The position numbers were made by a program, and so were the translations under genes. Source: a bacterium (GTDB taxonomy: Bacteria; Hydrothermota; 32-111). Taken from it: 19,067 nucleotides of DNA. Under the pieces are notes generated by a model. That model worked only from the letters and a program-made list of their open reading frames with translations. It made no database searches and was not told the origin of the DNA. This document shows positions 2,471 to 19,067 of this stretch, piece after piece (within the stretch, counting starts at the first letter, position 1; each line of letters opens with the position of its first letter). Where the stretch lies: positions 1 through 19,067 of the forward strand of contig JBFXGO010000041.1 of the NCBI GenBank assembly GCA_050239825.1, in the 5' to 3' direction.

Positions 2471-2815
2471 GACACTATCCTAAATTAACCTCATTCCGCC
2501 CTCTCTTATGTCTCTCCTCAACAAACTCTCATCGGTCTAAAAGATAACATCCTCGCTCAAAGAAAAACCAATCTCGCTCTCGCTAAATCCATAAGATATA
2601 ATGCTTGGGCAAAATCTCAGAACCCTTGCTTTTTTAACCGCTCTTTGATAGTATCTCTATCAGTTACTTGAGGTCAATCTCGCTGAATTACTCCGGGTCA
2701 TTATCCTCCCAACAGATACTGTTGTTGCCTAAAGACCTCTCTATGTATTTTGTGCCATTTGTCAGTTCGCATCCGCTCTGAAAAAGCATCACAGAGATAA
2801 AGAGCAGAGCAAAAC

Positions 2816-2982
2816 AAAAAGTTAATAGTTTATGGTTAATAGTTGAGAGTTGGGAAAAAATAGAAGTACGCTGGTATGCTGGTAGACTGGTATGCTTTGA
2901 TAGATTCTTCAGGATAGAGGTAACTACTGCGGACTTCAGAATGACAAAATTCGTACGCTGGTTAGCTTGTGTGCTTGTATGC
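2816..2982. repeat. Heptamer (AGTTAAT-like) and octamer (TACGCTGG/TATGCTGG-like) tandem repeats inside the ORF
   Basis: gttaatagtttatggttaatagttgagagttg (2821-2852), gtacgctggtatgctggtagactggtatgct (2866-2896) and gtacgctggttagcttgtgtgcttgtatgc (2953-2982). Confidence 0.85.
2898..2946. repeat. 49-bp REP-like dispersed element, copy 1
   Basis: TGATAGATTCTTCA-N23-TTCAGAATGACA; collinear with 8100-8148. Confidence 0.75.
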
Positions 2983-3122
2983 TTGTTATGATTGAATATA
3001 TTCTTCATAATTACTCCTTTTTCACAGTTTCATTCTCTTGTCTTTCTTAATCTCATCTTATCCTTTTAACTAAAAACTTTAACTTTCTTTTTCCAGTCTT
3101 TCCTGTTTATCGTTTTCTCTTT

Positions 3123-3271: not shown

Positions 3272-4141
3272 TTATCTCTTATGTGATTTTCTATAAACTT
3301 CAATAAGACGCTCTATGGAAGTGTGAGTGTAAATCTGAGTTGTTCCTATTGATGAATGCCCTAAAAGCTCCTGAACCACTCTGATGTCAGCTCCGCTGTT
3401 GAGCATGTGCGTAGCAAATGTGTGCCTGAGAGTGTGCGGTGAAATGTTTGAAATTTTTGCGAAATCAGATATTCTTTTTTTTACAATTCTTCTGATGTCC
3501 CTGTTGTCAAGCCTGTGTCCGCGTATTGATACAATTAAAGCTCTATCATTTGAATTTCTAAGAGCCATATAACTGTTTAAAATATCTTTTGTCGGTATAT
3601 TAATGGGCACATGTCTCTCCTTTCCTCCCTTTGCATGCTTGATTTTGACTGTCATCTCGCTTGTAGAGACATCCTCTATGTCAAGAGAGACAAGCTCATT
3701 CGACCTCATTCCGGTGGCATAAAGCATTTCAAATATAAGTCTGTCTCTCACATCAGTGAATGCGCACCCCTTCATTGAGTCGAGGAACTGATTCATAATG
3801 TCGACACTCACAAAGACCGGAAGCTTCTTCTCGAAAGAGGGTGTCTTTATCAAAGACATCGGATTCTTCTTAACAATCTGCTCCCTGGAAAGAAATTTAA
3901 AAAATGATTTCAATGTGGCGACTTTCCTTGATATTGACCTCTTCTTCATTCCGGTTTCAGAGAGGTATGAAATAAACATCCTGACCATTCTCTTGTCGAC
4001 ATCTTCAATGCGTGGAACCTTCTCGTTTTCAAGATACTCTGCAAATTGCTCCAAATCAACTGCATACGCCTTTTGTGTCAACATGGAGTAATTTTTCTGC
4101 ACTCTTATGTAATTTAAAAAATTATCAATGTGTTGTCTCAT
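3272..4141 (-). CDS. xerC: Tyrosine recombinase XerC
   Basis: Catalytic set R (YATGMRSNE), K (KGGKER), HxLRH (SPHTLRHTFATH), H (LLGHSS) and Y (TQIYTH); SAM-like N-domain; overlaps the end of trmFO as in the trmFO-xerC gene order. Confidence 0.9.
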   Translation of the reverse strand: MRQHIDNFLNYIRVQKNYSMLTQKAYAVDLEQFAEYLENEKVPRIEDVDKRMVRMFISYLSETGMKKRSISRKVATLKSFFKFLSREQIVKKNPMSLIKTPSFEKKLPVFVSVDIMNQFLDSMKGCAFTDVRDRLIFEMLYATGMRSNELVSLDIEDVSTSEMTVKIKHAKGGKERHVPINIPTKDILNSYMALRNSNDRALIVSIRGHRLDNRDIRRIVKKRISDFAKISNISPHTLRHTFATHMLNSGADIRVVQELLGHSSIGTTQIYTHTSIERLIEVYRKSHKR

Positions 4142-5405
4142 TGTACCATCCGTAAATATCTCTCAATGCCCTCTTGGCATAAAATAATTTATCTTTTTTG
4201 CTGTACTCTTTGAATAACCCGAAGTTTGCATTCATTGGACTTATTTTTTTATTGCTCTTCAGGATATATCTTAGAAGCGAACCTGACATTGTAGTTTCAG
4301 GAGGAAGACTTATGCTCTTTTTATTTAACTTTGAATACACTGATAAAGCGGCATAAAGCCCCGTGAGAACAGCCTCCATATATCCTTCCGAGCCGGTGAG
4401 TTGCCCTGCGAGAAAAGAACCGCTCTGGTTTTTGAATTCGAGATTCTCGTTTAAGACGGTAGGTGAATCAACATAGGGATTTCTGTGCATCACTCCGTAT
4501 CTGAGTATCTCGGTTTTTTCAAGCCCCGGTATCATTCTTACGATTCTATCCTGCTCTCTCCATTTCAATCTTGTCTGACATCCAACCAGATTGAGCATCG
4601 TTCCTTCCCTATTTTCATTTCTCAGCTGTACGACTGCATAATATTTTTTATCAAATCCAACCGGTTTCATAACTCCAAATACAAGCGCCCTCCTTCCGTA
4701 GCGGGCAATCTCCTCAAAAGGCATACACCCTGAGAAAAATTCCTCCCTATCTGTTTCATCAAATTCAGCTCTCTCAGCATTCAAAAGTTCATCATAGAAT
4801 TTGTTGAATTCATCCTTTGTCATCGGGCAGTTCACATAGTCGCTCCCTTCATTGTATCTTGAAGCGGTAAAGCATATATTCATGTTTACGGAGTCCCGCG
4901 ATACTATTGGAGAGACGGCATCGGTAAAATGGTAAAAATCTCTGCCCGCCTTTTCCTTAATATAATCAAGGATGTTTTGGGAAGCAAATGGACCTGCGGC
5001 GATTATTGTCATTTTGCTTATGTCGCTTCTGTCAGCCTCTTTTCTTTTGACTGCAATGTTTGCGTCACTCTCTATCTCTGATGTAACGGATGAGGAAAAT
5101 TCATCTCTGTCTATTGCTAGAGCTTTTCCTGCTTTGACTCTAGTTTTGTGGGCATGATACATTATGTCGCTTCTCATGACTGCAAGCTCCGCTTTCAAAA
5201 GGCCATGAGCATTTTTTATCTCCACTGATTTGAATGAATTTGAGCACACTGGATAGGCAAATGAAGCGGAGTTATTGAAATGCTTCATCTTTTCATCGGG
5301 TCTCTTTTCAATAAGAAGCACTTTCACATTCAATTTGGATAGCGTCATTGCGGCTTCGCTACCTGCAAAACCGCCTCCTATGACAGTCACCCTCTCCTCT
5401 GTCAT
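4125..5405 (-). CDS. trmFO: FAD/folate-dependent tRNA (uracil-54)-methyltransferase TrmFO
   Basis: VIGGGFAGSEAA FAD motif, VCSNSFKS, FSGCMPFE, YAVVQLRNEN, RYGVMHRN and AGQLTGSEGY. Confidence 0.96.
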   Translation of the reverse strand: MTEERVTVIGGGFAGSEAAMTLSKLNVKVLLIEKRPDEKMKHFNNSASFAYPVCSNSFKSVEIKNAHGLLKAELAVMRSDIMYHAHKTRVKAGKALAIDRDEFSSSVTSEIESDANIAVKRKEADRSDISKMTIIAAGPFASQNILDYIKEKAGRDFYHFTDAVSPIVSRDSVNMNICFTASRYNEGSDYVNCPMTKDEFNKFYDELLNAERAEFDETDREEFFSGCMPFEEIARYGRRALVFGVMKPVGFDKKYYAVVQLRNENREGTMLNLVGCQTRLKWREQDRIVRMIPGLEKTEILRYGVMHRNPYVDSPTVLNENLEFKNQSGSFLAGQLTGSEGYMEAVLTGLYAALSVYSKLNKKSISLPPETTMSGSLLRYILKSNKKISPMNANFGLFKEYSKKDKLFYAKRALRDIYGWYNETTH

Positions 5406-5406
5406 G

Positions 5407-7569
5407 TTACTTCAGGAGAATGAAACCCTTTTTTACTATTTTCTTCCCCTCTGCCTTAACAAAATATTTTCCGCTCTTCAAAAAAGAGACATCCACGGAT
5501 GCATCCCTCTGTGTTGTGACTGTTTTGTTTAACAGCACTGCGCCGTCGCACCTTATGATCTTTATACTTATCTGCTGCTCAGCATTTGAATAGACTTTAA
5601 GGTTCAGCTCTCTTGTTTGTGAATTGTATGAGATAGTCATATCATCAAGCATTGAAGTATCCTTTATGGAAGGATATGCTTCGGAAATACCCACTCCGCA
5701 CCTGTCAGAAAGCACTGTATTTCCATATACAGAAGAGTGGGGAAGAACCGTAAGATAGTTATTGGAGGCATACGGGTCAAATGTCAGCTCGATGAATGTA
5801 TCTGCCACTTCGGATGCATACTCTTCTCTGAAAGCGGAATCCGTCACAGGATAAACATTGTCTATATATACTCCAAATGAAGATGGATATCCGGAGAAAA
5901 GAGTTCTGAATCTTATAAAAACATCTTTATTAACCCATTTACCAAGGTCTATTGCATACCTCTTCCATTCGGAATCCGCGCCTGTATAACTCTTTAAAGT
6001 GTCTATCGGCAGATAAAGATTATCATCTTCGGAAATTTCGGGAAAGAGATAGTCATTTCCTGCGCTGAGATCATACTTCATATAAAAGACAAGGGAATCC
6101 CCGTCGCGAACTCGCACCTTCTCTTTCAGTTTTATTATTGATGCCGAAGTGTTCACATTCCACGGATGGAGTGAAGCAAAAGATGAATAGTATTCGGTTG
6201 AATCTACAGATGCATAGGTCATTTCATATTTTGAAGTGTCATTGTAAAAGTCTGTTACATTCTTCAATTCATCTTCAATGTAAATTGTAAAATAATCCGC
6301 ATTGGCCGTATTCAATCCTGACCAAAATAGCGAGTCATCCCCGCTTATTTCAAGTTCGGGTTTTAATGGCATCTCTTTTGCTTTTCCTCTTACAGAATCG
6401 CAGAGGATGGCGGCTTTCAGAAGCCCGGGATAAACCCTCCTATATAGTGAATCAAGGGTTGATGCGGCAGGCTGGAATGAAATATCCACTTCAAGAGTGT
6501 ACGGAATGGTGGTTTTTCCCTTTACTCTCTTAGTCCATCCGTATATCCAGTCATCGCAGTCACCTGTTGTCGGATACATTTCAACTGAACGGTAATAATC
6601 ATAAGTTGTAATTCCGTCATTCATCCTCATGCCGCCGGCTATTTTTTCTGCCGCAGATATTATAAGAGAATCATCGAAAGTTGCCGAATAAATTGAACTC
6701 CACGGGTAGATAAGAGCCTGCGCATAAGAGTGGAGAGATATCGAAATGCTGAAATCATAATTTTCAATAAGTTTTTTGACGCTCCGTGTCTCTGCTTCGC
6801 TCGCCGGATAGGGTCCCGCATAAAGGTAAAGGTCGGAAGGATTGAGAGAGATTCCGGAAGGGTAGCCCCAATCAGACATCAAGTTTCTGTTGCATCCTCC
6901 GTCATAGTTTCTGTTGAGGTCAACTCCATAGTTGCCTGCCCTGTATGTGCGGTTTTTTCTCCAGTAATTGTCTCCCAAAGGATCATCATGCGAATAGTAG
7001 TATCCGTCGGGATTAACAATCGGATAAACAACTATGAAGTTTTCATCTATCATTCTCTTAACGATAGTGTCCGTCTCGTATGATGCCATAATGGATTCCG
7101 CAAAGAAGATTGCCAAAGGAATGGTCTGCCATTCGCGCGCATGATGCTCAGCCATCAGAAGGAATGCATTCTGCCCCTGATACGAATCGGAATTCACTCC
7201 GTTTATCTTCAGAATAACAAGAGGATTGCCTTCATAAGTGAAACCGAGAGTCTCAAGGGAGCATATAGAATCATACTTCGCAGAGAGAGAGTCAAGAATT
7301 TCGTAGTATTCGCTCAAGGCAAGATATTCTCCCTTAGAATCTGCCTTCGGCGAAGATGTCATTTCAATTCCCATGCTTTTGATTTTTTCTGTCTGAGTTT
7401 CACTTAAATTGAGCTCCACCCACTCACCCTTCCTATATCCTATAATATCAAGGTCTATGATGCTCTCTCTTATACGGATAAATTCATCAAACTCTACCTT
7501 GACAATCTCTCGAGGGAATGAGATAAGAAAGAATGCCGATAATAACAATGAAATAATTATTTTTTTCAT
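5407..7569 (-). CDS. Secreted M14 zinc carboxypeptidase with a beta-sandwich domain and a T9SS-like C-terminal sorting domain
   Basis: Signal peptide; HHAREW (HxxE), NPDGY, WRKNR, GVDLNRNY, SLHSY, GDCDDW and TLE; C-terminus LKSGKYFVKAEGKKIVKKGFILLK resembles a T9SS type A CTD. Confidence 0.9.
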   Translation of the reverse strand: MKKIIISLLLSAFFLISFPREIVKVEFDEFIRIRESIIDLDIIGYRKGEWVELNLSETQTEKIKSMGIEMTSSPKADSKGEYLALSEYYEILDSLSAKYDSICSLETLGFTYEGNPLVILKINGVNSDSYQGQNAFLLMAEHHAREWQTIPLAIFFAESIMASYETDTIVKRMIDENFIVVYPIVNPDGYYYSHDDPLGDNYWRKNRTYRAGNYGVDLNRNYDGGCNRNLMSDWGYPSGISLNPSDLYLYAGPYPASEAETRSVKKLIENYDFSISISLHSYAQALIYPWSSIYSATFDDSLIISAAEKIAGGMRMNDGITTYDYYRSVEMYPTTGDCDDWIYGWTKRVKGKTTIPYTLEVDISFQPAASTLDSLYRRVYPGLLKAAILCDSVRGKAKEMPLKPELEISGDDSLFWSGLNTANADYFTIYIEDELKNVTDFYNDTSKYEMTYASVDSTEYYSSFASLHPWNVNTSASIIKLKEKVRVRDGDSLVFYMKYDLSAGNDYLFPEISEDDNLYLPIDTLKSYTGADSEWKRYAIDLGKWVNKDVFIRFRTLFSGYPSSFGVYIDNVYPVTDSAFREEYASEVADTFIELTFDPYASNNYLTVLPHSSVYGNTVLSDRCGVGISEAYPSIKDTSMLDDMTISYNSQTRELNLKVYSNAEQQISIKIIRCDGAVLLNKTVTTQRDASVDVSFLKSGKYFVKAEGKKIVKKGFILLK

Positions 7570-7604: not shown

Positions 7605-7776
7605 TACCCGACTGGTCTTATATTCGTAACAAAACAGGAAAATGTGCGAGCCGACGCTACGCTCCCTGCTGCCAGCAAATCAGTCTTCTATGGTATAATT
7701 CAGTTACGAGTTGAGAGTTACGGGTTGCGAGTTCAAATACAATACGGGGAGTTGAGTAATATTTATTCTTTTCAGT

Positions 7777-8041
7777 AATCTTCACAAAGTTCTGGTGCAA
7801 CCCGAGTTGTATATCATGTGCGCTCGCGCACATTCCTCCCAAGCCAATGCTTTGTGAAGATTCATTCAATTAATTATCTTATTGAAAGTGTAAGCTGCAA
7901 GCTCATGAGGATGTCAGCCGGGGCAGCCCATCATGTGTGGGGACATGTACTTGTACTGTCCCCATAACATGACTGCTGTTTTCAGCACTCCAACTCTACT
8001 CCATCATGATATAGCTGCCTAAGGCTGATGTGCGAATGAGC
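7777..8041 (+). ncRNA. Candidate structured RNA of unknown family (alternatively a mosaic of REP-like palindromes)
   Basis: A 13-bp stem (7777-7789/7850-7862) enclosing two hairpins, and a rod 7901-8041 whose G-U pairs favour the + strand; extended -10 TGGTATAAT at 7691-7699. Confidence 0.35.
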
Positions 8042-8099
8042 GCTATGCCCGCCAGCAGCCACCAATCAATCTTCAATAATCAACAAACAAACAATAAAA

Positions 8100-8188
8100 T
8101 GATAGACCCTTCACTATAGTCATAACCATAGAGGCGTTCAGGGTGACACGGCTGAGTCATAGCTACTGAATAGTTCAGGGTGACACGG
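8100..8188. repeat. 49-bp REP-like element copy 2, plus a tandem partial copy 3
   Basis: TGATAGACCCTTCA-N23-TTCAGGGTGACA (8100-8148); gttcagggtgacacgg occurs twice (8136-8151 and 8173-8188). Confidence 0.8.
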
Positions 8189-8265
8189 TTGAGTAGGATT
8201 TTGTTTTTTAAGACTCGTGTGTGAGCCGACGCTACGCCAGCATGCAGCCAGCAAACTCAAAGCAT

Positions 8266-8294
8266 AAAAAAGGGCGGGTTTAAGCCCGCCCTTT
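8266..8294 (-). terminator. Rho-independent terminator of the hydrogenase operon (possibly bidirectional)
   Basis: AAAGGGCGGG-tttaag-CCCGCCCTTT stem, followed on the minus strand by TTTTTT, about 20 nt after the hydA stop. Confidence 0.9.
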
Positions 8295-8314: not shown

Positions 8315-10117
8315 TCAGACAAGGTCTGATCTGTCAACATACTTTGTATGAAGAAGTTTGTGCGCCTTGTGTGAATTCGGCTCGCCGAGATAATCCTTGT
8401 AAATTTTCTGCACCATCGGATTATTGTGTGAAGCGCGCACCTTGAGCATTTCTTTGTCTTCCTTATAGAGTCCTTCCGCCCTTCTTGCTCTTGCCGCATA
8501 TTCGCACGCATAAGGCTGTCCGCCGCCGCCGACGCAGCCGCCGGGGCAAGCCATTATCTCTATGAAGTGGTACTCTGACTGTCCTTTCTCCTTAAGCTGT
8601 TCCGCAACTTTCGTCAGAAGCTTTCTTGCATTTGAGAGTCCGTGGGCAACTGCCACTTTAGCAGGAAGAACCTTCATTCCGAGAGCCTTTGCATTTGCTT
8701 CGCTTAAGGGCACTTCAACGACACCCTCCTTAATTCCGTCCATTCCTCTCACAAGCTTTATGTCATAGTTTTCCATCTCTTTTCCGGATAGAACGAACCA
8801 TGCTGTTCTGAGCGCCGCTTCCATAACTCCGCCTGTTGCTCCGAAAATTGTTGCCGCTCCCGTGTAGAATCCCATGAGTTCATCGGCCTCTTCTTCAGGA
8901 AGATTCTTAAAGTCGATTCCGGACTGACGGATCATCTTTGCGAATTCTCTAGTTGTAAGAACATAATCAACATCCTGATAACCGCTTGAATTCATCTCCG
9001 GACGAGCCGCTTCAAATTTCTTTGCAGTGCACGGCATTATTGATACCGATACTATATTCTTCGGATCAATCTTTTCTGTTTCAGCATAGTATGTCTTGGC
9101 GAGAGCGCCGAACATCTGCTGGGGAGATTTAGCTGTTGAGATATGCTCTCTCAGATTGGGGAAGAATGTCTCCATGAATTTTATCCATCCGGGAGAACAA
9201 GATGTAATAACCGGCAGGTTCTTTCCTACTTCGCCCGTAGAGAGCGCTTTTGCTATCTTTCCCACAACCTCTGTTCCCTCTTCCATGATGGTAAGGTCTG
9301 CGGAGAAGTTTGTGTCAAAGACCCTGTCAAATCCCATCCTTCTTAAAGCTGTGTGCATCCTTCCGGATGAGACAGTTCCCTCTGTCATGCCGAAATCTTC
9401 TCCTATTGCAACTCTGACTGCAGGGGCTTCCTGAACTACAACATGCTTTGTCGGGTCATTTATCGCCGCCCACACTTCATTTATTGAACTCTTTTCATAG
9501 AGAGCTCCGACCGGACAGACTGCGACGCACTGTCCGCAGTTTGTGCATGTAGAATCATTGAGAGGCATATCCATGAATGTCGACATCTTTGTATCATAAC
9601 CCCTGTTTATAAAGTCAATCGCATAAACTGTCTGAATGTTCTGGCATGCCTGTATGCACCTTCCGCAGAGTATGCACTTGTTGGGGTCGCGTATTATAAC
9701 TCCTTTATCATCAATAGGCATATCCCTGTCAAATCTCTTGAACGGAAGCTCTGTAACTCCAAGCTGTTCAGCCATTGTCTGCAGTTCGCAGTTTTGATTT
9801 CTGTAGCACTGAAGGCAATCGTTCGGATGATTTGAAAGAATAAGCTCCATGACCGTCTTTCTTGCATCAAGAACCTGTTTTGTATTTGTGCGCACTTTCA
9901 TTTTATCTGCCGCGGGAGTGCAGCAAGACCTTTTCAATGTGCCTACGCCTTCAACTTCAACAACGCAGATTCCGCAATTTCCCGTCGGAGTCAAATCTTT
10001 GTAGTAGCAGAGAGTGGGAATCTCGACATTGACTTTTTTGGCCGCATCAAGTATGGTCACCCCTTCAGGCACCTTTACTTCTATCCCGTCAATATAAAGT
10101 GTCAATTCCTTTATCAT
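8315..10117 (-). CDS. hydA: [FeFe]-hydrogenase catalytic subunit, group A multimeric type (HydA/HndD)
   Basis: N-terminal [2Fe-2S], His-ligated cluster (HPNDCLQC...C), two [4Fe-4S] motifs (CILCGRC, CTNCGQC); H-cluster motifs TSCSPGW, MPCTAKKFE and EIMACPGGCVGGGGQP; small-subunit tail AHKLLHTKY. Confidence 0.97.
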   Translation of the reverse strand: MIKELTLYIDGIEVKVPEGVTILDAAKKVNVEIPTLCYYKDLTPTGNCGICVVEVEGVGTLKRSCCTPAADKMKVRTNTKQVLDARKTVMELILSNHPNDCLQCYRNQNCELQTMAEQLGVTELPFKRFDRDMPIDDKGVIIRDPNKCILCGRCIQACQNIQTVYAIDFINRGYDTKMSTFMDMPLNDSTCTNCGQCVAVCPVGALYEKSSINEVWAAINDPTKHVVVQEAPAVRVAIGEDFGMTEGTVSSGRMHTALRRMGFDRVFDTNFSADLTIMEEGTEVVGKIAKALSTGEVGKNLPVITSCSPGWIKFMETFFPNLREHISTAKSPQQMFGALAKTYYAETEKIDPKNIVSVSIMPCTAKKFEAARPEMNSSGYQDVDYVLTTREFAKMIRQSGIDFKNLPEEEADELMGFYTGAATIFGATGGVMEAALRTAWFVLSGKEMENYDIKLVRGMDGIKEGVVEVPLSEANAKALGMKVLPAKVAVAHGLSNARKLLTKVAEQLKEKGQSEYHFIEIMACPGGCVGGGGQPYACEYAARARRAEGLYKEDKEMLKVRASHNNPMVQKIYKDYLGEPNSHKAHKLLHTKYVDRSDLV

Positions 10118-10128
10118 TGGTCTTCTCC

Positions 10129-11703
10129 TTATTTATTAATATTTTTTTTCATGTCTTCTTCAAGATACTTGCTGAAACTGCTTATTGGAATATACGGCGA
10201 CTGCCCCAGAGGACAGAAGGATGTGAGCTTCATAGTTAACGAGAGATCTTTCATTGTCTCCCAGTCAGCCTCTGTGGCTCTTCCCTTCATAATATCCTTT
10301 GAAATCAGTTCAAGCCGCTTTGTTCCTATCCTGCAAGGCGAACACTTTCCGCAAGATTCATGTTTGAAGAATTCAAGAATGGAATTGAGTGTCTCTACGG
10401 GGTCCCTGTCCTCCGACATCACAAGCACTGCTCCTGAACCCAGTACTGCCGCCCACTCTCCAAGAGAGTCAAAGTCCATCTTCACATCAAGACCCTTCTC
10501 GGAAATGAATGCTCCAGCCGCTCCGCCTATGAGAGCCGCTTTGAATTTCTTTCCTTCTTTTATTCCGCCGCCGAATTTATACACTACATCTTTAAGAGTT
10601 GTTCCCATTTCAACTTCTATGAGACCGGGATAGAGAATATCTCCCATCAAAGTGAATACCTTTGTTCCGGGGCATTTTTCAGTGCCGAGTTTCTTGTACC
10701 AATCCGCTCCATTGACCATTATTGCAGGCACATTTGCAAGTGTCTCCACATTGTTGACAACAGAGGGATTCATCCTGAAACCCTTTACTCCCGGGAAAGG
10801 AGGCTTATTTCTCGGATTGCCGCGTTTTCCTTCCATCGACTCTATCAGAGAGGTCTCCTCTCCGCATACATAAGCTCCGGCTCCCTTTCTCACTTCAATG
10901 TCAAATGAGAATGAACTCTCGAGTATGTTTTTCCCGAGAAGGTTGTTCTTTTTCGCTGTCTCTATTGCTTTGTTCACCTTCTCTATTGAGAGAGCATATT
11001 CTCCTCTTATGTATATGAATCCCTTTGAAGCGCCTATAGCATAACCCGCAATTGTCATTCCCTCAATAAGTCTGAATGGAACTCCTTCCATAATGAGTCT
11101 GTCCTTGAATGTTCCCGGCTCTCCTTCGTCGGCATTGCATATTATATATTTCTCTCCGGCAAGCGGCGCCGTGAATGACCATTTGAGTCCTGTGGGAAAT
11201 CCTGCGCCTCCGCGCCCTCTCAGTCCGGATTTCTTTACTGCATCAACGACATCCTGCGGCTTCATTTCAAACAAAGCCTTGCCCAGTCCTTCGTATCCGC
11301 CTATACCTATGTACTCTTCTATTGATTCGGGATCAATCTCACCCGAACCTTTAAGCACAACTCTATTTTGTTTCGGCAATTCCATCTGTACAGAGGCTCC
11401 GGAAACTCTCTCTCCGGAGAAGACAAGGTCTTTTACAATTCTTCCCTTTATTATGTGTTCACTCATTATTTTTGTCACATCGTCAGCCTTCACATTGACA
11501 TATATGACTCCCTCGGGATAGACAATGACGACCACGCCTTTATTTGAAATACCCAGATTTCCTGTCTCAGCAACCATCACTTCATTTGAAAGTTTTGCGT
11601 TGTCAACCTCTTTCTTGAATTTTTCAAAGATCCCCTTTGCGCCTGAAAGCAGAGTCTCAGGGTCAATGGAGACAAGAATATGTGTTCTGTATATCTTAGC
11701 CAT
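10129..11703 (-). CDS. NuoF/HydB-like NAD(H)/FMN-binding subunit 2 (non-bifurcating signatures)
   Basis: GLRGRGGAGFPTG, NADEGEPGTFKDR, GAYVCGEET and ESCGKCSPCRIG...C; N-terminal thioredoxin-like domain without Cys. Confidence 0.93.
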   Translation of the reverse strand: MAKIYRTHILVSIDPETLLSGAKGIFEKFKKEVDNAKLSNEVMVAETGNLGISNKGVVVIVYPEGVIYVNVKADDVTKIMSEHIIKGRIVKDLVFSGERVSGASVQMELPKQNRVVLKGSGEIDPESIEEYIGIGGYEGLGKALFEMKPQDVVDAVKKSGLRGRGGAGFPTGLKWSFTAPLAGEKYIICNADEGEPGTFKDRLIMEGVPFRLIEGMTIAGYAIGASKGFIYIRGEYALSIEKVNKAIETAKKNNLLGKNILESSFSFDIEVRKGAGAYVCGEETSLIESMEGKRGNPRNKPPFPGVKGFRMNPSVVNNVETLANVPAIMVNGADWYKKLGTEKCPGTKVFTLMGDILYPGLIEVEMGTTLKDVVYKFGGGIKEGKKFKAALIGGAAGAFISEKGLDVKMDFDSLGEWAAVLGSGAVLVMSEDRDPVETLNSILEFFKHESCGKCSPCRIGTKRLELISKDIMKGRATEADWETMKDLSLTMKLTSFCPLGQSPYIPISSFSKYLEEDMKKNINK

Positions 11704-12160
11704 TGTTATTCTCCCTGTATTTTTTAATTATTTCGTCAATCTTCTCAGGCGTCAGATTTCCGTAGACTTCTTCGTCTATCATCATTGCCGGAGCCACAGC
11801 GCAGACTCCGAGGCATGCGGCGCTCTCAAGTGTGAACATCTTGTCTTCAGTGGTCTGACCGTCCTTCACTCCAAGAGCTTTTTTCAGATAACCCATTATC
11901 GTATCGCTTCCCATCATCTGGCACGGAGGCGAAACGCACACGCGCACAACATGACGGCCACGCTCTTTGACGGAGAACATGGTATAGAAGGTTACAACAC
12001 CCATCACTTCGGACCTGCTCATGTTCAAATGCTTTGAAACTGCTTTGAGGTCCTCTTCTGTCAGGTACTTGCCTTCATTCGCATCCTGTATGTCATGCAG
12101 GATGTAAAGAAGATTTTCCCGCGTCGGCTGGTACTTTTTAAGTATCTGCTCTCTTGCCAT
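11696..12160 (-). CDS. NuoE/HydC-like [2Fe-2S] subunit 2
   Basis: GVVTFYTMF and CVSPPC...CLGVCAVAPAM; GGAGG RBS. Confidence 0.93.
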   Translation of the reverse strand: MAREQILKKYQPTRENLLYILHDIQDANEGKYLTEEDLKAVSKHLNMSRSEVMGVVTFYTMFSVKERGRHVVRVCVSPPCQMMGSDTIMGYLKKALGVKDGQTTEDKMFTLESAACLGVCAVAPAMMIDEEVYGNLTPEKIDEIIKKYRENNNG

Positions 12161-12186
12161 AAAACCTCCGTATTATATTTTATTTT

Positions 12187-13809
12187 CTACTTTTTCTTTC
12201 TGAAGCAGACATTTGCTCTGCACTTCTTTTCTCTTATATGCTCATAGTACTCTTCTTTGAAATATCTGAGGGTGGAGAGCACTGGATTGGGAGCTGTTTG
12301 TCCCAGACCGCAAAGAGCTGTTTTGCATATCTGCTCTCCAAGATTAATCAGAAGGTCTATTTCGCTCTCATCGGCTTTTCCCTTTGAAATTCTTTCAAGT
12401 ATTTCAAGCATCTTTTTGGTGCCTATTCTGCATGAGGGGCACTTTCCGCATGATTCATCCTGGGTGAAATCAAGAAAATACTTTGCAAGATCTACCATGC
12501 AGGTGTCCTGACTCATGACAATAAGACCGCCTGAGCCGATTATTGTTCCAAGCTTCTTCACACTCTCATAATCAAGAGGCGTGTCTATGTAATCTGCAGG
12601 TATGCATCCTCCGGAAGGGCCGCCCATCTGTGCGGCTTTGAAAAATTTTCCTTCAGGCATTCCTCCGCCTATTTCATAGATGATTTCGCGGAGTGTTGTC
12701 CCCATGGGAACTTCCACAAGTCCGGTGTTGTTTATTTCTCCGGCCAGCGCAAAGACTTTTGTTCCCTTGCTCTTCTCTGTTCCAATTGACGAGAACCATT
12801 TGCTGCCTTTCAGAATTATCTGGCAGATGTTTGCATATGTCTCTACATTATTTATGAGAGTCGGTTTATCCCAAAGCCCTTTATCCGCCGGGAAAGGGGG
12901 CTTCGTAGAGGGTGTTCCGCGTTTTCCCTCAACCGAGTGCATAAGCGCTGTCTCTTCTCCGCACACGAATGCTCCGGCTCCGACTCTTATTTCAAGGTCA
13001 AAACTGAAATTTTTATCAAAGATATTCTTTCCGAGAAGATTCTCTTTATATGCCATATCAATTGCTTTTTTCAAACGCTTTATTGCCAGCGGATATTCTG
13101 CTCTAACATATACATACCCTTTATCGGATCCGACAGCATAACCTGCAATCGTCATTGCTTCTATTATTGAGAACGGGTCCCCTTCAAGCACAGACCTGTC
13201 CATAAAGGCGCCAGGGTCTCCCTCGTCAGCATTGCATATGACGAATTTTTTATCTGATTTGGCGTTTTTTACAAACTCCCACTTGAGTCCCGTCGGGAAA
13301 CCGGCTCCGCCTCGTCCGCGCAGGCCTGAATCTTTAATCTCCTTTACGACATCCTCCGGTTTCATTTCTGTCAGAACCTTTGAAAGAGCCGAATAACCGT
13401 CCTTTCCTATGTACTCTTCAAGAGATTCCGGGTCTATCACTCCGGTATTCCTGAGCACAATCTTCAACTGCTTTGAAAAGAAAGGCATCTCTGCCGCCTT
13501 CTCTATCAGTTTATCAGCCTGAGAATCTTTGTACATGAGCCTCGAAACCGTTCTTCCTTTTTCAAAATGCTCGGAGACAATCTCCGCGGCATCCTCCGGT
13601 TTCAGTTTTTTATAGAAGACTCCATCGGGATATACAATCGCGACAGGACCAAGCTCGCATATTCCTACACAGCCTGTCTCAACTATCTTGACAGTATCCT
13701 GAAGATTTTTCTTCTTAAGCTCTTCAATCAGCTTGTCTCTAAAAGAGTAACCGCCGCTTGAAATGCAGGAGGCTCCCGAGCAGAGCAGTACACTGTAGAC
13801 TTTTGTCAT
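12187..13809 (-). CDS. hydB: NuoF/HydB (HndC)-like subunit 1 (bifurcating signatures, C-terminally short)
   Basis: N-terminal CSGASC...GCVGIC; NADEGDPGAFMDRS, GAFVCGEET, GGPSGGC and ESCGKCPSCRIG; ends EHIREKKCRANVCFRKKK. Confidence 0.93.
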   Translation of the reverse strand: MTKVYSVLLCSGASCISSGGYSFRDKLIEELKKKNLQDTVKIVETGCVGICELGPVAIVYPDGVFYKKLKPEDAAEIVSEHFEKGRTVSRLMYKDSQADKLIEKAAEMPFFSKQLKIVLRNTGVIDPESLEEYIGKDGYSALSKVLTEMKPEDVVKEIKDSGLRGRGGAGFPTGLKWEFVKNAKSDKKFVICNADEGDPGAFMDRSVLEGDPFSIIEAMTIAGYAVGSDKGYVYVRAEYPLAIKRLKKAIDMAYKENLLGKNIFDKNFSFDLEIRVGAGAFVCGEETALMHSVEGKRGTPSTKPPFPADKGLWDKPTLINNVETYANICQIILKGSKWFSSIGTEKSKGTKVFALAGEINNTGLVEVPMGTTLREIIYEIGGGMPEGKFFKAAQMGGPSGGCIPADYIDTPLDYESVKKLGTIIGSGGLIVMSQDTCMVDLAKYFLDFTQDESCGKCPSCRIGTKKMLEILERISKGKADESEIDLLINLGEQICKTALCGLGQTAPNPVLSTLRYFKEEYYEHIREKKCRANVCFRKKK

Positions 13810-13819
13810 TATGCCTCCA

Positions 13820-14179
13820 TTACTTTGCTGATATTACCAATTCAGTAACCGTGCTTCCGTTTACAAAATGCTCTGCGACTATTCTTCTGGTCTTTTCCGG
13901 AGTAAGGTTGCCGTATGTAACCATCTGTTTTCCGTCTTCATAGACATCTATTATCGGCTCCACATCGCAGAGGCCTCTGCATCCGGACTGTGTCACCACA
14001 ATGTCTGTGAGATTTCTTTTGCTTATCTCATCCATGAGAGCGGACAGAACATCTCTTGCTCCAGCGGCTATTCCGCATGTTCCCATTCCCACAACCGCCT
14101 TTATTCTTCCCTTACCCTCTCTCAAGTTTGCTGATTTTTCCATCTTTTCCCTGATCTTTTTGAGATCTTCGAGTTTCAT
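13820..14179 (-). CDS. Thioredoxin-like [2Fe-2S] ferredoxin subunit (HndB/HydD-like)
   Basis: VGMGTCGIAAGA and SGCRGLCDVEP, typical of HndB; position before hydB. Confidence 0.9.
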   Translation of the reverse strand: MKLEDLKKIREKMEKSANLREGKGRIKAVVGMGTCGIAAGARDVLSALMDEISKRNLTDIVVTQSGCRGLCDVEPIIDVYEDGKQMVTYGNLTPEKTRRIVAEHFVNGSTVTELVISAK

Positions 14180-14727
14180 AATGCCTCCTGATTTTTTATT
14201 ATATTTTCTTGTTCTCTTATATAATCTCTTACTATCATTGATAATTCCGGCTTGTTCAGGTTATCGCTTCCGACTGCATCTTTGATTTCCGAACTGTCAA
14301 TCACCGTTTCTTTCCCTTTTGCTCTGTGAGAGAAAATGAAATCGCATGTATCGTACATTGTCATGAGTATCCACACAGTCTCTGCAATATCGCCCAAAGG
14401 GAGCGCATCTACATGGCTCGTGTTCACCGTCCATCTTACTGTAGTTCCCTCTCCGGGTTTTGATTCTATCTTGAATTTTCCGTCGCACAGCTCGACATTC
14501 TGTTTCAGCAGAGGAAGCCCGAGACCTATCTTCTTCTTTCTCTCCGTCTTGGTTGTATAAAAAGGATTGAGAGCATTTTTTATCGTCTCTTCATCCATAC
14601 CCCTGCCATTGTCCCGTATCATAAAAGAGGAAATATTTCCCTCATCAATGAGGATCTCCACCTTTGTTGCTTCAGCTCTCACGCTGTTTTCCGCAATATC
14701 AAGTATGTGCAGAGACATATCACGCAT
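14176..14727 (-). CDS. Stand-alone HATPase_c (histidine-kinase-like ATPase) protein
   Basis: N box (LDIAENS), G1 (DNGRGM), F box (PFYTTK), G2 (GLGLPL) and SKPGEGT; no separate sensor or dimerisation domain. Confidence 0.88.
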   Translation of the reverse strand: MRDMSLHILDIAENSVRAEATKVEILIDEGNISSFMIRDNGRGMDEETIKNALNPFYTTKTERKKKIGLGLPLLKQNVELCDGKFKIESKPGEGTTVRWTVNTSHVDALPLGDIAETVWILMTMYDTCDFIFSHRAKGKETVIDSSEIKDAVGSDNLNKPELSMIVRDYIREQENIIKNQEAL

Positions 14728-15226
14728 TTACCTTTTCGCCCGCCTCTTTTTCTTTATATTCGTTTATTATTTCTCTCACCTTTTCCTCTGTGAGCTTTCC
14801 ATAAACATCTTCATCAATCATCATCACCGGCGCAAGTCCGCACGCTCCAAGACATCTTGCACCCTGTATTTTGAAAAGACCGTCTTCAGTGGTCTGTTCA
14901 ATCTCCACTTTGAGCTCTTTTTTCAATGCGCTGAGTATTCTGTCAGCTCCCTTGACGTAGCATGCCGTGCCTAAACAAAGTTTGATAGTGTGTTTGCTGG
15001 GCGGTTGAAGCGTAAAAAAGTGGTAGAATGTTATCACTCCGTATATCACGCTTCTGTAAACCTCAAGCTCCTTTGAAATCAGGCTTATTGCCTCCTGAGG
15101 AATATATCCGAAGAGCTCCTGAGTCCTGTGAAGAACCTCTATAAGGTCATCCTGTCCTTTTTTATGCTTCTTCACCTCTTCAGAAAGCAGTTTCAGATTT
15201 TCTTCCCTGCTTCTCTTGTCGTTCAT
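14720..15226 (-). CDS. hydC: NuoE/HydC (HndA)-like [2Fe-2S] subunit 1
   Basis: CLGTACYVKG...CLGACGLAPVM. Start reassigned to ATG 15226 (AAGGAGG RBS, TAATG overlap with the PHP gene stop). Confidence 0.92.
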   Translation of the reverse strand: MNDKRSREENLKLLSEEVKKHKKGQDDLIEVLHRTQELFGYIPQEAISLISKELEVYRSVIYGVITFYHFFTLQPPSKHTIKLCLGTACYVKGADRILSALKKELKVEIEQTTEDGLFKIQGARCLGACGLAPVMMIDEDVYGKLTEEKVREIINEYKEKEAGEKVNA

Positions 15227-15954
15227 TAAAAGCCTCCTTTGTGGCATTCAATTAATCTTTTTTCCAATGCTTCCTTGAATATTTCAAACCCCGCACCTTC
15301 ATGGCACTTATCCATTGAAAATGAGGAGTATCTTCTTCCAATTTCATCTACATAATGCGCATCAGATGAGCAGATAACCGGATATTTGTCCGAATACGGC
15401 TTTAATGATGAATAGACCTCTATTCCGTCAAATAAGGTTTCCTCGGGAAGAAATCCCAGCTGAGAAACAACAGAGAATGCCTTCCTGTCAACATGGGAGG
15501 CAAGCGCAAGACCTTTGAATCTGTGTATCAACTCAACCGCGCCGTCAAGGCTAAGGGTGCTTGATACACCCAGGAACCTCTCCTCTTCTCTGACAACTTC
15601 ATCATTTTTATCAATGACTATCTGAGACCCCATGCTTTCAGTATCGCATTTTATAAATGGAAGGGTCTTCTCAAACTCCGCATAAAATTCAGATATTTGC
15701 TGGAAATCCTTAAAGTATCCGAGAATATGAACCTCTTCTCTTGTCTGAATCTCTATGCCGCTTATCACCTCAATGCCCATTATGTGACATGCTTCAACCA
15801 CTGCAGGAATGTTGGCAATAGCATTATGGTCTGTGACTGCTATAATATCAAGATGCATATGTTTTGCCATCTTTGCAATAGCGGCTGAGGACATTGACCA
15901 ATCGCCGCACGGCGACAGACATGTGTGAATGTGAAGGTCTAGCCTGTGTTTCAT
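15226..15954 (-). CDS. PHP-domain phosphoesterase
   Basis: DLHIHT, VTDHN, GIEI, EVHILG and SSDAH metal-binding motifs. Confidence 0.92.
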   Translation of the reverse strand: MKHRLDLHIHTCLSPCGDWSMSSAAIAKMAKHMHLDIIAVTDHNAIANIPAVVEACHIMGIEVISGIEIQTREEVHILGYFKDFQQISEFYAEFEKTLPFIKCDTESMGSQIVIDKNDEVVREEERFLGVSSTLSLDGAVELIHRFKGLALASHVDRKAFSVVSQLGFLPEETLFDGIEVYSSLKPYSDKYPVICSSDAHYVDEIGRRYSSFSMDKCHEGAGFEIFKEALEKRLIECHKGGF

Positions 15955-16280
15955 TATTTAATGCCTGATTCGTACAGCATTCCTGCAATTTCAAAGGTTC
16001 CTTTCTCTGTTTTTAAAATAGGAATATTCTCTCTAACTGCGGCCTCGACAGTATCATCATCCGCGGTGAACCCGTCGCAAATAATTATGGCTGATATATC
16101 AGCCATCTTCGCCACTGCGACGATATTCTTATGTGTCTGAACGGTTAGCCACACAGACTGCGGCTTCACCCTTCCCATTACAACAGAGAGAAGGTCTGAC
16201 GCATATCCGTTGACAACTTCATTGTCTCCCTGCACGGTATATTCAAGGCCAAATTTATCTTTCATCTGGGAAACTCTCAT
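15954..16280 (-). CDS. DRTGG-domain protein
   Basis: GYASDLLSVVM...VWLTVQTHKNIVAVA pattern of hydrogenase-associated DRTGG proteins. Confidence 0.82.
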   Translation of the reverse strand: MRVSQMKDKFGLEYTVQGDNEVVNGYASDLLSVVMGRVKPQSVWLTVQTHKNIVAVAKMADISAIIICDGFTADDDTVEAAVRENIPILKTEKGTFEIAGMLYESGIK

Positions 16281-17557
16281 TTTTCCCCCTTTTCAAGTTT
16301 TTTCAGTTCTTCTTTCATTATCACTATGCATTCATCAAGCTTCGCCTTGCCCTGAACTATATCTTCGGCAAATGCCATGCAGGTAGGGCATCCGCATGCT
16401 CCGCAGTCGAGCCCGGGAAGCTTCTGCTCTATCTCTTTTATCTTTTCCATCTTGTTTAGCGCCGCATTTATGTCCGGATCAAGCACAATGGGACGGGGGA
16501 GCAGTTTCTCTTTCAGCAGAAACTCTCTCTCTTTCAAATCCAAAGACTCTTCTCTGCCTGCTTCAATCTCCTTCATTGTCTTTGCTATGTTTTCAATTCT
16601 CTCCTTTGCCACAAAACTATTCTCAACATTGAAAATTCCGCCCACACAGCCGCCGGGACATGCCTGAGCTTCTATGTAATCAAACTGAGTGACATCATCA
16701 TCTTCAACCTTTTCAAGAACCTTTATGACATTATGTATTCCGTCGACAGAGAGTTTTCTAACTTTGCCCTTTATGGAATCATTCTCTCCGCCCTCTTTGC
16801 CCCAGAGAATCCCTCTCGGTCCTGCCTTTACAAGGTCGCGCCTCTTCACTATTTTGTCAATATGATTTATCAGATGTTCATAGATTTCGGCAATGGATAT
16901 TGTTCCGTCCACAGGAGAGACCTCGTCTCCCTCCGGGTCCTTCACTGATGTCACTTTCGCCGGACAGGGAGTTATGAAAAAAACGCCTATCTCTTTTTCG
17001 CTGATATTGAGTCTTTTTGCGGCTCTTCTCTTCGCCATTATTGCAGTGACATCCATTGGGGTCACGAGCGGGATAATGTTGGATATAAGAGAGGGAAAAC
17101 GCACCTGAATAAGCCTCACCACCGAAGGACAGGCTGATGAAATAAATGGTCTGATATCCCTGTGTTCTTCTATGTATTTTGCAATATAATCAGAGACAAT
17201 CTCGGCTCCGTATGCAACTTCCAGAACCTCATCAAAACCGCACTCTATCATGCCACCGAGAATCCCGGCTATCTCAAGCCTCTCCGGGAACTGCCCCACA
17301 ATAGAGGGAGCCGGTATCGCTATCCTGTGCTTGAAGTTTTCCAGCATTTTCAGTGTATCGGAGACCGCATATTTAGCATGATTTGGACAAGTTCTTATAC
17401 ATTCTCCGCAGTCAATGCACCTCTCCTCAATTATGGACGCTTTTCCGTTTCTGATTCTTATTGCCTCCGTAGGACACCTTCTCATGCAATGGGTGCATCC
17501 CTTGCAGTCATCCTCTTTCAAACGGACAGAATGAAAATATTTAATCATTCTTTCCAT
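16277..17557 (-). CDS. Putative sensory/regulatory [FeFe]-hydrogenase-like Fe-S protein
   Basis: N-terminal 2[4Fe-4S] (CKGCTHC...CP; CIDCGEC...CP); divergent H-cluster motifs SSACPS, TPCPAK and EAQACPGGCVGG; C-terminal FeS domain LPGLDCGACGCPTC...C. Start ATG 17557 after AGGAG. Confidence 0.87.
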   Translation of the reverse strand: MERMIKYFHSVRLKEDDCKGCTHCMRRCPTEAIRIRNGKASIIEERCIDCGECIRTCPNHAKYAVSDTLKMLENFKHRIAIPAPSIVGQFPERLEIAGILGGMIECGFDEVLEVAYGAEIVSDYIAKYIEEHRDIRPFISSACPSVVRLIQVRFPSLISNIIPLVTPMDVTAIMAKRRAAKRLNISEKEIGVFFITPCPAKVTSVKDPEGDEVSPVDGTISIAEIYEHLINHIDKIVKRRDLVKAGPRGILWGKEGGENDSIKGKVRKLSVDGIHNVIKVLEKVEDDDVTQFDYIEAQACPGGCVGGIFNVENSFVAKERIENIAKTMKEIEAGREESLDLKEREFLLKEKLLPRPIVLDPDINAALNKMEKIKEIEQKLPGLDCGACGCPTCMAFAEDIVQGKAKLDECIVIMKEELKKLEKGEK

Positions 17558-17978
17558 TATCTCTCCTGACAATGAAATCCACTGTTGTTCCTGTAGGCAC
17601 AACACTCTCGACATTCAGCACATCAGTATTCTTTTTTATATTGGGAAGCCCCATGCCCGCTCCGAATCCAAGTTCGCGAATTCTCTCCGGAGCAGTTGAA
17701 TATCCCTCTTTCATTGCCATCTCGACATTTTCAATGCCCGGTCCATTATCCTTAACAACAACCCTTACCTCATTCGGAGTTATTACTGCCCGCAGATGTC
17801 CGTCAGATGCATGAACCACCACATTCATCTCAGCTTCATAACTTGAAACGACTATCCTTTTTATGATATCGGGAGGATACCCTATCTGCTTAAGAGTATT
17901 CTTGAGGGCGCTTGATGCAGAGCCTGCCCTGTCAAAATCATTGTGCTTAATGTCAAAATCAAGCTCAATGGTTGTCAT
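17541..17978 (-). CDS. RsbT/anti-sigma-type Ser/Thr kinase (HATPase fold)
   Basis: YEAEMNVVVHA, DNGPGI, EGYSTA and GFGAGMGLPNIK. Confidence 0.88.
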   Translation of the reverse strand: MTTIELDFDIKHNDFDRAGSASSALKNTLKQIGYPPDIIKRIVVSSYEAEMNVVVHASDGHLRAVITPNEVRVVVKDNGPGIENVEMAMKEGYSTAPERIRELGFGAGMGLPNIKKNTDVLNVESVVPTGTTVDFIVRRDNGKND

Positions 17979-18327
17979 GCGCCACCTTTTTGTGCTTTAA
18001 TCCCTTTCCATAGAGGATTCCGCAGGTTTCAAACATATCAAATTCCGTTACAAGAAGCGCTATTCCATTCTTTTCAGCCAGTGTGACCATCTCTTTTGTA
18101 GGAGTCTTTCCCCTGACAAAAACTATGCACGACGATTCAACCATTTCAGCGGTTCTGATAGCCTGAAGATTTACAAGGTTCGTCACTATGACCGACTCCC
18201 TATCTGCAAGAAGCAGAACTTCACTCATAAGGTCTGATGCGCATATAGACTTTACTTCTTTGGCCCCAGCCTGCAGATTGCAGAACGGACAGTTTAGAAG
18301 GTTCTTCAATTCAGACAAATTCATCAT
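17965..18327 (-). CDS. DRTGG-domain protein
   Basis: ASDLMSEVL...TNLVNLQAIRTAEM...IVFVRGK...MFETCGILY. Confidence 0.85.
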   Translation of the reverse strand: MMNLSELKNLLNCPFCNLQAGAKEVKSICASDLMSEVLLLADRESVIVTNLVNLQAIRTAEMVESSCIVFVRGKTPTKEMVTLAEKNGIALLVTEFDMFETCGILYGKGLKHKKVAHDNH

Positions 18328-18427
18328 TACTCCATATATAATAAATTTGATTGCAGATGCTTTTTATTTCGGGGAAACAAACCCGAGCTTCAGCTAATCT
18401 CAATCATGTACATCTACGAGCGTATGC

Positions 18428-18445
18428 TCGTTATTTTTTTCACTA
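18428..18445. promoter_or_regulatory. Possible Rex operator
   Basis: TCGTTAT-tttt-TTCACTA matches 10 of 14 positions of TTGTGAA-N4-TTCACAA, just downstream of the predicted transcription start. Confidence 0.4.
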
Positions 18446-18457
18446 AATGTCCATAAT

Positions 18458-18485
18458 ATTATAATAATTAAGCAAATAAAGTCAA
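18458..18485 (-). promoter_or_regulatory. Sigma70-type promoter of the hydrogenase operon
   Basis: TTGACT (18485-18480), 16 nt, TATAAT (18463-18458). Confidence 0.65.
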
Positions 18486-18536
18486 GAGAGGGAAATATAG
18501 GCCCGAATGTCATTAAATCCATTTATTATCAGGGGA

Positions 18537-19067
18537 TTATTTTCTGATTCTGAGTCTGCCGAGTTTAGAGCTGAACTCCTCGTATTCGCCTCCCTTCATA
18601 ATAGAACCTATATGCGTCATGGAGACAGAGAAATAGACTATCGACATAAACGCGGCCATTGTTATTATTGCATAAGATTTCCCTATGAAATAGGCATAAA
18701 AAGGCATTGCCGTCATCATCAAAAGAGCCATCAGAGCAGGTCTCTTTGTTATTATTGCCAGAAGAATTGTTATTGCGATGAATATAAATATTATATCAGG
18801 AATAATACCCATAAGTGCTCCAAGTGAAGTCGAAAGCCCCGTGCCCCCTTTGAATCCTATGAATACCGGGAAAATATGCCCTAAAACCGCAAAGAGTCCG
18901 CAGATTATGACGGTTATTTCATTACTCAAGGTCAGACTCCCCAAAACATGTCTTGCAATGACAACCGGTATCAAGCCTTTTAGAATGTCAAATACTGCAG
19001 TTAGAGCTCCCACTCTGAATCCCCCCTCCAAAAATGCATTTGTGGCTCCAATGTTCTTCCTTTGTCC
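18537..19067 (-). CDS. PlsY-family glycerol-3-phosphate acyltransferase-like membrane protein (5' end outside the window)
   Basis: The frame is open to the window edge: GQRKNIGATNAFL..., FDILKG, AVLGHIFPVFIGFKGG; several transmembrane helices. Confidence 0.85.
   Translation of the reverse strand, partial: GQRKNIGATNAFLEGGFRVGALTAVFDILKGLIPVVIARHVLGSLTLSNEITVIICGLFAVLGHIFPVFIGFKGGTGLSTSLGALMGIIPDIIFIFIAITILLAIITKRPALMALLMMTAMPFYAYFIGKSYAIITMAAFMSIVYFSVSMTHIGSIMKGGEYEEFSSKLGRLRIRK

Follow-up and report, generated by a model that had tools for sequence, protein, structure and literature searches.

We analysed a 19,067-nucleotide stretch of bacterial DNA (the window), which is the whole of contig C66 (JBFXGO010000041.1) of genome G000 (2.1 Mb, 99% complete), and focused on a minus-strand operon that encodes two unlike pairs of NuoE/NuoF-type subunits, E1/F1 and E2/F2, ahead of a single [FeFe]-hydrogenase catalytic subunit, HydA. 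F1 resembles the flavoprotein HydB of electron-bifurcating hydrogenases, whereas F2 is of the non-bifurcating type. As we read the sequences, these are probably two alternative diaphorase modules that dock on the one catalytic subunit and would give it an NADH-only mode and an NADH-plus-ferredoxin mode, a reading that we favour at slightly better than even confidence. The architecture itself is real and conserved, and apparently uncharacterised; it is a variant within the HydABC/Bfu kind, each module type being already known.

Genes were assigned by open reading frame (ORF) calling, Pfam/NCBIfam profile searches and inspection of the raw sequence. These bore out the order given by an earlier reading of the sequence alone (nuoE1-HATPase-hndB-nuoF1-nuoE2-nuoF2-hydA, with short gaps or overlaps). 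E1, a HydC/HoxE-type [2Fe-2S] subunit of the NuoE type (14720..15226, on the minus strand like all genes of the operon), is followed by a kinase-like HATPase of 183 residues (14176..14727, Pfam), D, a thioredoxin-fold protein of 119 residues with three Cys that we take to be HydD/HndB-like (13820..14179), F1 (540 residues, 12187..13809), the second [2Fe-2S] subunit E2 (11696..12160), F2 (524 residues, 10129..11703) and HydA (600 residues, 8315..10117). The junctions measure, in order, -8, -4, +10, +26, -8 and +11 nt. Five coupled regulatory-type genes upstream of E1 lengthen the operon to 18327, so that 12 co-directional genes run from 18327 to 8315 with intergenic gaps of -20 to +26 nt.

The motifs quoted in the sequence-only reading are all present in the translations: DPGAFMD, GAFVCGEE and GGPSG in F1 (AFM, F281) and EPGTFKD, GAYVCGEE and GGAAG in F2 (TFK, Y278). 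Their division into bifurcating and non-bifurcating classes agrees with published criteria (Losey 2020, PMC7311640). F1 also keeps the ligands of the B5 [2Fe-2S] cluster (Cys 10, 15, 47 and 51), of the B1 [4Fe-4S] cluster (Cys 454, 457, 460 and 500) and of the Zn/B2 site with its conserved His (C437, H524, C530 and C535), and all three sets are kept in 49 of 49 dual-block F1 sequences examined. The best match of F1 is HydB of A. woodii (63% identity; E 5e-236 in another comparison), and HydB structures rank first for its predicted fold (mean pLDDT 76.9). As far as C535 it follows A. woodii and A. mobile HydB almost position by position, free of gaps over the HydA-facing helical domain. However, the alignment covers residues 7-539 of the 599-residue A. 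woodii protein and then stops: the stop codon lies 5 residues past C535, and Pfam found no C-terminal 2x[4Fe-4S] domain (clusters B3 and B4). The identification of F1 as a bifurcating HydB thus stands for the motifs, B1, B5 and Zn/B2 but not for B3/B4, which leaves an incomplete HydB. Because the ferredoxin domain is missing, F1 as judged from its sequence is HydB-like but outside Bfu by the published definition, and resembles HoxF. Its partner E1 carries the C1 [2Fe-2S] cluster of the BfuC criterion and has the cluster loop C-LGTA-C; its HoxE score of 183.7 lies under the cut-off of 224 and above the HoxE-near range of scores.

We rejected a frameshift or pseudogene as the source of the short F1, since the F1-E2 gap is 26 nt, all close relatives end at the same boundary and the ratio of nonsynonymous to synonymous substitution rates (dN/dS) is low. 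When G000 was queried with the tail of the long F1 found in related blocks, the matches were limited to NfnB, an Mbx-like subunit and weak flavoproteins; a separately encoded DPD-II + FAD/NAD(P) tail was not found in that genome, whose GltD-like proteins belong to NfnAB and to the Mbx-like cluster. The latter (C21:188-11038), for which Mbx is our presumed label, encodes an Mbx/Mbs-like membrane complex with a NuoI-like subunit fused to a GltD-like flavin domain (619 residues). A PR-to-PS change in the window's F1 is lineage-specific, and we found no interpretable sign, among conserved changes at the F1 surface, of a new interface. By FastTree the window's F1 is sister to the long F1 (0.98), a grouping left unresolved in IQ-TREE, and short F1 as a single clade was rejected by the approximately unbiased (AU) test (p 0.00017; quick LG+G4 tree of 47 sequences, IQ-TREE).

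F2 shows the published non-bifurcating features, namely T/S-x-K/S/A, Tyr and no GGPSG, together with an N-terminal thioredoxin domain without Cys; only the B1 ligands are kept, B2-B5 being missing. T-x-K and Tyr occur in 63 of 63 F2-type sequences, a set defined by the T/S motif, so that only K and Tyr are independent. The E2 cluster loop, C-VSPP-C, is unlike that of E1, and the two loops differ at all 47 loci checked for each. To the sequence-only reading nuoE2-nuoF2 looked like an insertion; our comparisons do not support a simple insertion of complex-I-like genes. The best solved-structure match of F2 is HydB (7t2r_B, E 6e-162), HydB structures coming first and the best NuoF reaching only 5e-117. 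F2 scores 487.5 against the complex I model TIGR01959 (cut-off 558.65) and 392 against NF010120, just above 389, and its thioredoxin N-terminus also departs from complex I NuoF. Its closest matches are WOR-3/TA06 records. Furthermore, the HydA of the window clusters with HydAs encoded after F2 (58-61% identity) and is more distant from those after long F1 in Syntrophus-type loci (53-55%). From these sequence relations E2-F2-HydA looks like the core of the system and E1-D-F1 like a module without a catalytic gene of its own. With 47% identity between F1 and F2 and 41% between E1 and E2, the two modules reflect an old paralogy and not a local duplication. An NAD/NADP split between them, raised earlier, is unsupported: F1 (E286) and F2 (E283) both retain the Glu at a position tied to selectivity for NADH over NADPH (PMC12018979). 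S. aciditrophicus HydB was not found by name in the F2 clade among the best 120 of 416 matches, most of which are nameless.

HydA appears to be an intact NADH-dependent group A enzyme. Its H-cluster motifs TSCSPGW, MPCTAKK and EIMACPGGCVGGGGQP are present, it passes NF040763 (843.7, cut-off 765) and TIGR02512, and its NuoG-like N-terminus retains the His-ligated cluster (H97, C101, C104 and C110), whose ligands are invariant among 19 HydA N-termini. Apart from RnfC, G000 encodes two proteins of the NuoF type, and it has a single NuoG-type protein; a second A-type partner was searched for in this 99% complete genome and none was found, and 4 of 4 relatives tested likewise have a single NuoG-type protein. 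Both modules in G000 therefore have the same one candidate partner, and the suggestion that one of them serves an enzyme encoded elsewhere does not hold there. All genes are under strong purifying selection, the F1 and F2 modules to the same degree as HydA (dN/dS 0.011-0.038 for F1, 0.013-0.034 for F2 and 0.016-0.033 for HydA over five genome pairs, with a sixth at saturation). On C30 of G000 lie three neighbouring ORFs that by inspection look like hydG, hydF and hydE, and by similar inspection of ORFs we take the genome to encode Rnf, NfnAB, 2-oxoacid oxidoreductases and small ferredoxins, the latter on C53 and C7.

A search for E-K-B-F-E-F-A synteny found the block conserved across three phyla. 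Its presence in independent genomes rules out a misassembly or local accident, and it is not unique to this assembly. In WOR-3, the tandem F1-F2 occurs in 6 of 13 relatives within the window's family (two cut by contig ends). A second WOR-3 family has the short F1 in 8 of 8 genomes, among the matches listed (150 of 278), and the block on one contig in 7 of the 8. The tandem is present in 24 of 93 Caldisericota genomes, a count taken from 57 of the listed rows; among 201 sampled Aminicenantia genomes, 37 have an F2-level match and 31 have HydB directly upstream. We annotated 56 loci, which were picked for their tandem look and so give no frequency, and 50 of them contain the block. Of these 50 blocks, 24 have an F1 of the short form, 9 one of the standard form and 17 one of the long form (~1,020 residues, with DPD-II + FAD/NAD(P) domain). 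Directly downstream comes an [FeFe] HydA in 26 blocks (2 of them cut), a Mo/W formate dehydrogenase in 18, with a formate transporter after it in several blocks, and an [NiFe] adaptor, accompanied by small and large subunits, in 2; two blocks have no A gene after them and two reach a contig end. Nearly all short AFM/AYM-type proteins among the matches listed (24/25) lie within a dual block, and the 24 short F1 proteins all retain B5, the hinge ligands and the A-x-M and F motifs.

We hypothesize that both modules are self-sufficient and dock, one or the other, at the same NuoG-like N-terminal site of HydA. HydA with E2 and F2 would act as an NADH:H+ oxidoreductase that needs no ferredoxin and works only where H2 is very low; HydA with E1 and F1 (plus D) would be of the bifurcating type, coupling NADH to ferredoxin. 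In the absence of a tethered 2x[4Fe-4S] domain on F1, the docking place for soluble ferredoxin would have to be close to the E1/B5 clusters or at the exposed Zn hinge, as has been proposed for cyanobacterial HoxEFU. Which module is in use may be set by the sensor-like hydrogenase, kinases and phosphatase of the same operon. The docking, the activities, bifurcation by the short F1 and any switch are what we infer; the interchangeable modules of the sequence-only reading are also our best reading, one towards which we lean somewhat.

Each module also occurs alone with a catalytic subunit in relatives. E2-F2-HydA is found without F1 in G009 (99% complete) and at locus L170, and a short F1 without F2 in G282 and G346. 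In the Syntrophus-type loci (L027-L030 and L035) one cluster holds both modules, each with a HydA of its own, and at L164, L166 and L167 a related F1 stands directly before HydA and E2-F2 trails without an A gene. The block is also retained while its catalytic partner is swapped among HydA, formate dehydrogenase and the [NiFe] adaptor; in G283, G284 and G305 a single [NiFe] adaptor is located away from it. We count the distinct E1 and E2 loops, the single partner, the selection on both modules, the non-bifurcating features of F2 and the hydG/F/E-like, Rnf, NfnAB, 2-oxoacid oxidoreductase and ferredoxin genes of G000 for alternative docking as well. Anaerobes have been suggested to use both enzyme types at different H2 levels (Losey 2020, PMC7311640), and HoxEFUYH, with AFM and GGPSG, is reported to bifurcate without a C-terminal ferredoxin domain (preprint 10.64898/2026.06.25.734504).

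Several points weigh against alternative modules. Deletion of the HydB C-terminus left T. kivui HydABC with low bifurcation activity (PMC10021017) and the Bfu family is defined by B1-B5 (Schut 2022, PMC9304861), because of which the short F1 may not be bifurcating. Co-transcription and coupled translation predict equal amounts of the two modules, which fits a fixed complex equally well, and the cohesion of the block where the A gene is distant (L150 and L151) is also explicable by a direct F1-F2 link. G282 and G346 are small, possibly incomplete drafts, and none of the 8 genomes of the second WOR-3 family has the sensor-like hydrogenase in its block.

The strongest alternative, which we consider possible but clearly less probable, is a fixed asymmetric complex in which two unlike FMN sites act in one cycle. 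Known HydABC enzymes are dimers of trimers with His-ligated clusters ~9 Å apart (PMC9499530), and the invariance of H97, C101, C104 and C110 would suit such a complex. So would the conservation of gene order and coupling over three phyla, the near confinement of short AFM/AYM-type proteins to dual blocks and the rejection of a single short-F1 clade, by which the short form arose or was kept in several lineages. The block also persists without an A gene: it is intact at L150 and L151 though the A gene is elsewhere. However, each module is found alone with an A subunit, and a monomeric T. kivui variant bifurcates normally, modelling having pointed to little transfer between the two halves of the dimer (PMC10021017). 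One would also expect the coupling to be short-circuited if a bifurcating site were wired to an ungated NADH site. In a fuller form, which we put forward only tentatively, the block would be a two-flavin unit for electron input, transferable and so far unrecognised within the HydABC/Bfu superfamily. A gated bifurcating FMN and an ungated NADH site would then sit in one asymmetric complex on a dimeric hydrogenase or formate dehydrogenase. Which low-potential partner is used would depend on the F1 tail (absent, 2x[4Fe-4S] or FAD/NAD(P) domain), and the window would hold the minimal form, bifurcating without a tethered ferredoxin domain.

It is improbable, in our view, that E1-D-F1 does not serve HydA at all and that E2-F2-HydA is the only hydrogenase, with E1-D-F1 acting as a stand-alone NADH:ferredoxin oxidoreductase, as a redox sensor for the kinases or as an input to a non-NuoG complex (Mbx-like or Rnf). 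The grouping of HydA with F2-following HydAs and the interleaving of E1 and D with regulatory genes would fit this, and BfuBC cores without BfuA have been described (Type 4; Schut 2022, PMC9304861). Yet F1 keeps the B1 cluster and the gap-free alignment over the HydA-facing domain, and at L164, L166 and L167 it is F1 that adjoins HydA. Least probable of all is that both modules are non-bifurcating, the short F1 having lost ferredoxin coupling with its tail and the two differing only in kinetics, direction or nucleotide: B3/B4 loss marks non-bifurcating enzymes (PMC11406978, Zheng and Huang 2024) and lowers activity in T. kivui HydABC (PMC10021017), but the short F1 proteins keep B5, hinge ligands and both motifs without exception, the NADH-selective Glu is retained in F1 and F2, and HoxF shows the tail to be dispensable (preprint 10.64898/2026.06.25.734504).

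F1 shares AFM/F/GGPSG, B1, B5 and the hinge ligands with HydABC(D)/Bfu enzymes (A. woodii 7Q4V, T. kivui 8A6T, T. maritima 7P5H, the A. mobile NiFe-HydABCSL 7T2R and Hnd-type tetramers), and the E-kinase-D-B-A order of ordinary tetrameric HydABC(D) clusters, seen in many loci, is the same as here. In contrast to these, the window's F1 lacks B3/B4 and an extra E/F pair lies between F1 and HydA; within the literature covered, characterised members have one BC core each and the window's block has two. F2 is like the non-bifurcating NADH-dependent hydrogenases in its T/K, Tyr and absence of GGPSG and B2-B5. Compared by eye, the 520-residue Ca. Cloacimonas protein YP_001741249, listed with these residues in the Losey 2020 supplement (PMC7311640), is F2-like (T/K/Y/GGAAG, Cys-less N-terminus). 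However, such enzymes have their own catalytic subunit, and the same literature describes no case where that subunit is shared with a bifurcating-type module. The flavoprotein of cyanobacterial HoxEFU(YH) is like F1 in its N-terminal [2Fe-2S], AFM, GGPSG and lack of a C-terminal ferredoxin domain, but it serves a NiFe core through a single diaphorase module, and F1 keeps the Zn/B2 hinge and is nearer HydB. The window has HydA in place of the NiFe subunits with HoxU that define HoxEFUYH; a NiFe core is present at L152 and L153. The BfuB of BfuABC sub-type I has DPD-II + FAD/NAD(P) domain (PMC11406978), precisely the domains of the long F1 in related blocks and a tail that the window's F1 lacks. 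Our literature search, whose coverage left out most subscription papers, found no description of one catalytic subunit combined with two unlike BC modules.

The features by which HydABC-type enzymes bifurcate are still under debate. Here nature supplies a matched pair of modules, one bifurcating-type and one non-bifurcating-type, for the same catalytic subunit, and the short F1 is a natural B3/B4 deletion maintained under selection. One hydrogenase core encoded with two different NADH-handling modules, in a layout common to WOR-3 (a mostly uncultured group), Caldisericota and Aminicenantia, suggests an enzyme able to run in two energetic modes. If the modules swap, a single H-cluster enzyme would let fermenters adjust to H2 pressure. 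Labelling an enzyme bifurcating or non-bifurcating by the motifs or domains of one neighbouring gene is incomplete for these three widespread anaerobic lineages.

Further variants of the block were seen in relatives. In G009, remnants of the sensor and D genes (L026:6617-8279), with E1, the kinase and F1 gone, precede an intact E2-F2-HydA. A Dictyoglomus-like contig (L189:8543-10638, 86% to P0032) has E2-F2 but neither F1 nor a catalytic gene in its vicinity; Dictyoglomus also carries an ordinary bifurcating HydB of 624 residues. In the window's family, L141 and L142 have an E2-F2 fusion of 577 residues without a thioredoxin domain upstream of HydA, the layout described for S. aciditrophicus HydB, and L144, L146 and L147, of the same class, have the order E2-formate dehydrogenase-F2. 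Long F1 proteins of Caldisericota (L149, L151, L152 and L153) carry AFK in place of AFM, a hybrid of both motif classes. D has mostly lost its Cys in dual blocks, the three-Cys pattern being present in 5 of 47, in the window's family; elsewhere the Cys-less D may be purely structural.

The regulatory-type genes begin with a DRTGG-domain protein of 120 residues (17965..18327; PF07085, below cut-off) and an anti-sigma-factor-like HATPase of 145 residues, a putative Ser kinase (17541..17978; PF13581, TIGR01925 below cut-off). They are followed by an [FeFe]-hydrogenase-like protein of putative sensory type (16277..17560) with 2x[4Fe-4S], Fe_hyd_lg_C and a C-terminal FeS domain; it has an SSACP motif and lacks the Cys before the cluster ligand, and a sensory role for such proteins is putative (PMC8924675). 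A DRTGG/HPr-kinase-N protein of 108 residues (15954..16280) and a PHP-domain phosphoesterase of 242 residues (15226..15954), both assigned by Pfam, complete the set before E1. The start of the operon is present twice in G000: C38:1-127 overlaps the window end exactly (127 nt), and C38 1798-3084 repeats window 17644-19067 at 94-97%, apart from a 134-nt gap within the DRTGG gene, which makes it a partial tandem duplicate.

Downstream of HydA, the single terminator claimed earlier corresponds to an intrinsic-terminator-like hairpin with a 10-bp stem and a T run (8269..8294, minus strand); the scan's total of such sites, 10, is at chance level (8.2 +/- 3.1). Beyond it, non-coding positions 7741-8208 belong to a dispersed repeat family with many copies on >25 contigs (70-92% identity) and gave no Rfam match at gathering score. 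Intergenic repeats with internal inverted repeats, common to several contigs, occupy 1-253, 2209-2704 and 2696-3030. The remaining genes have no relation to the operon: an M14 zinc carboxypeptidase with a T9SS-type tail (5407-7569, Pfam) and, by inspection, genes that we take to be TrmFO-like (4125-5405) and XerC-like (3272-4141).

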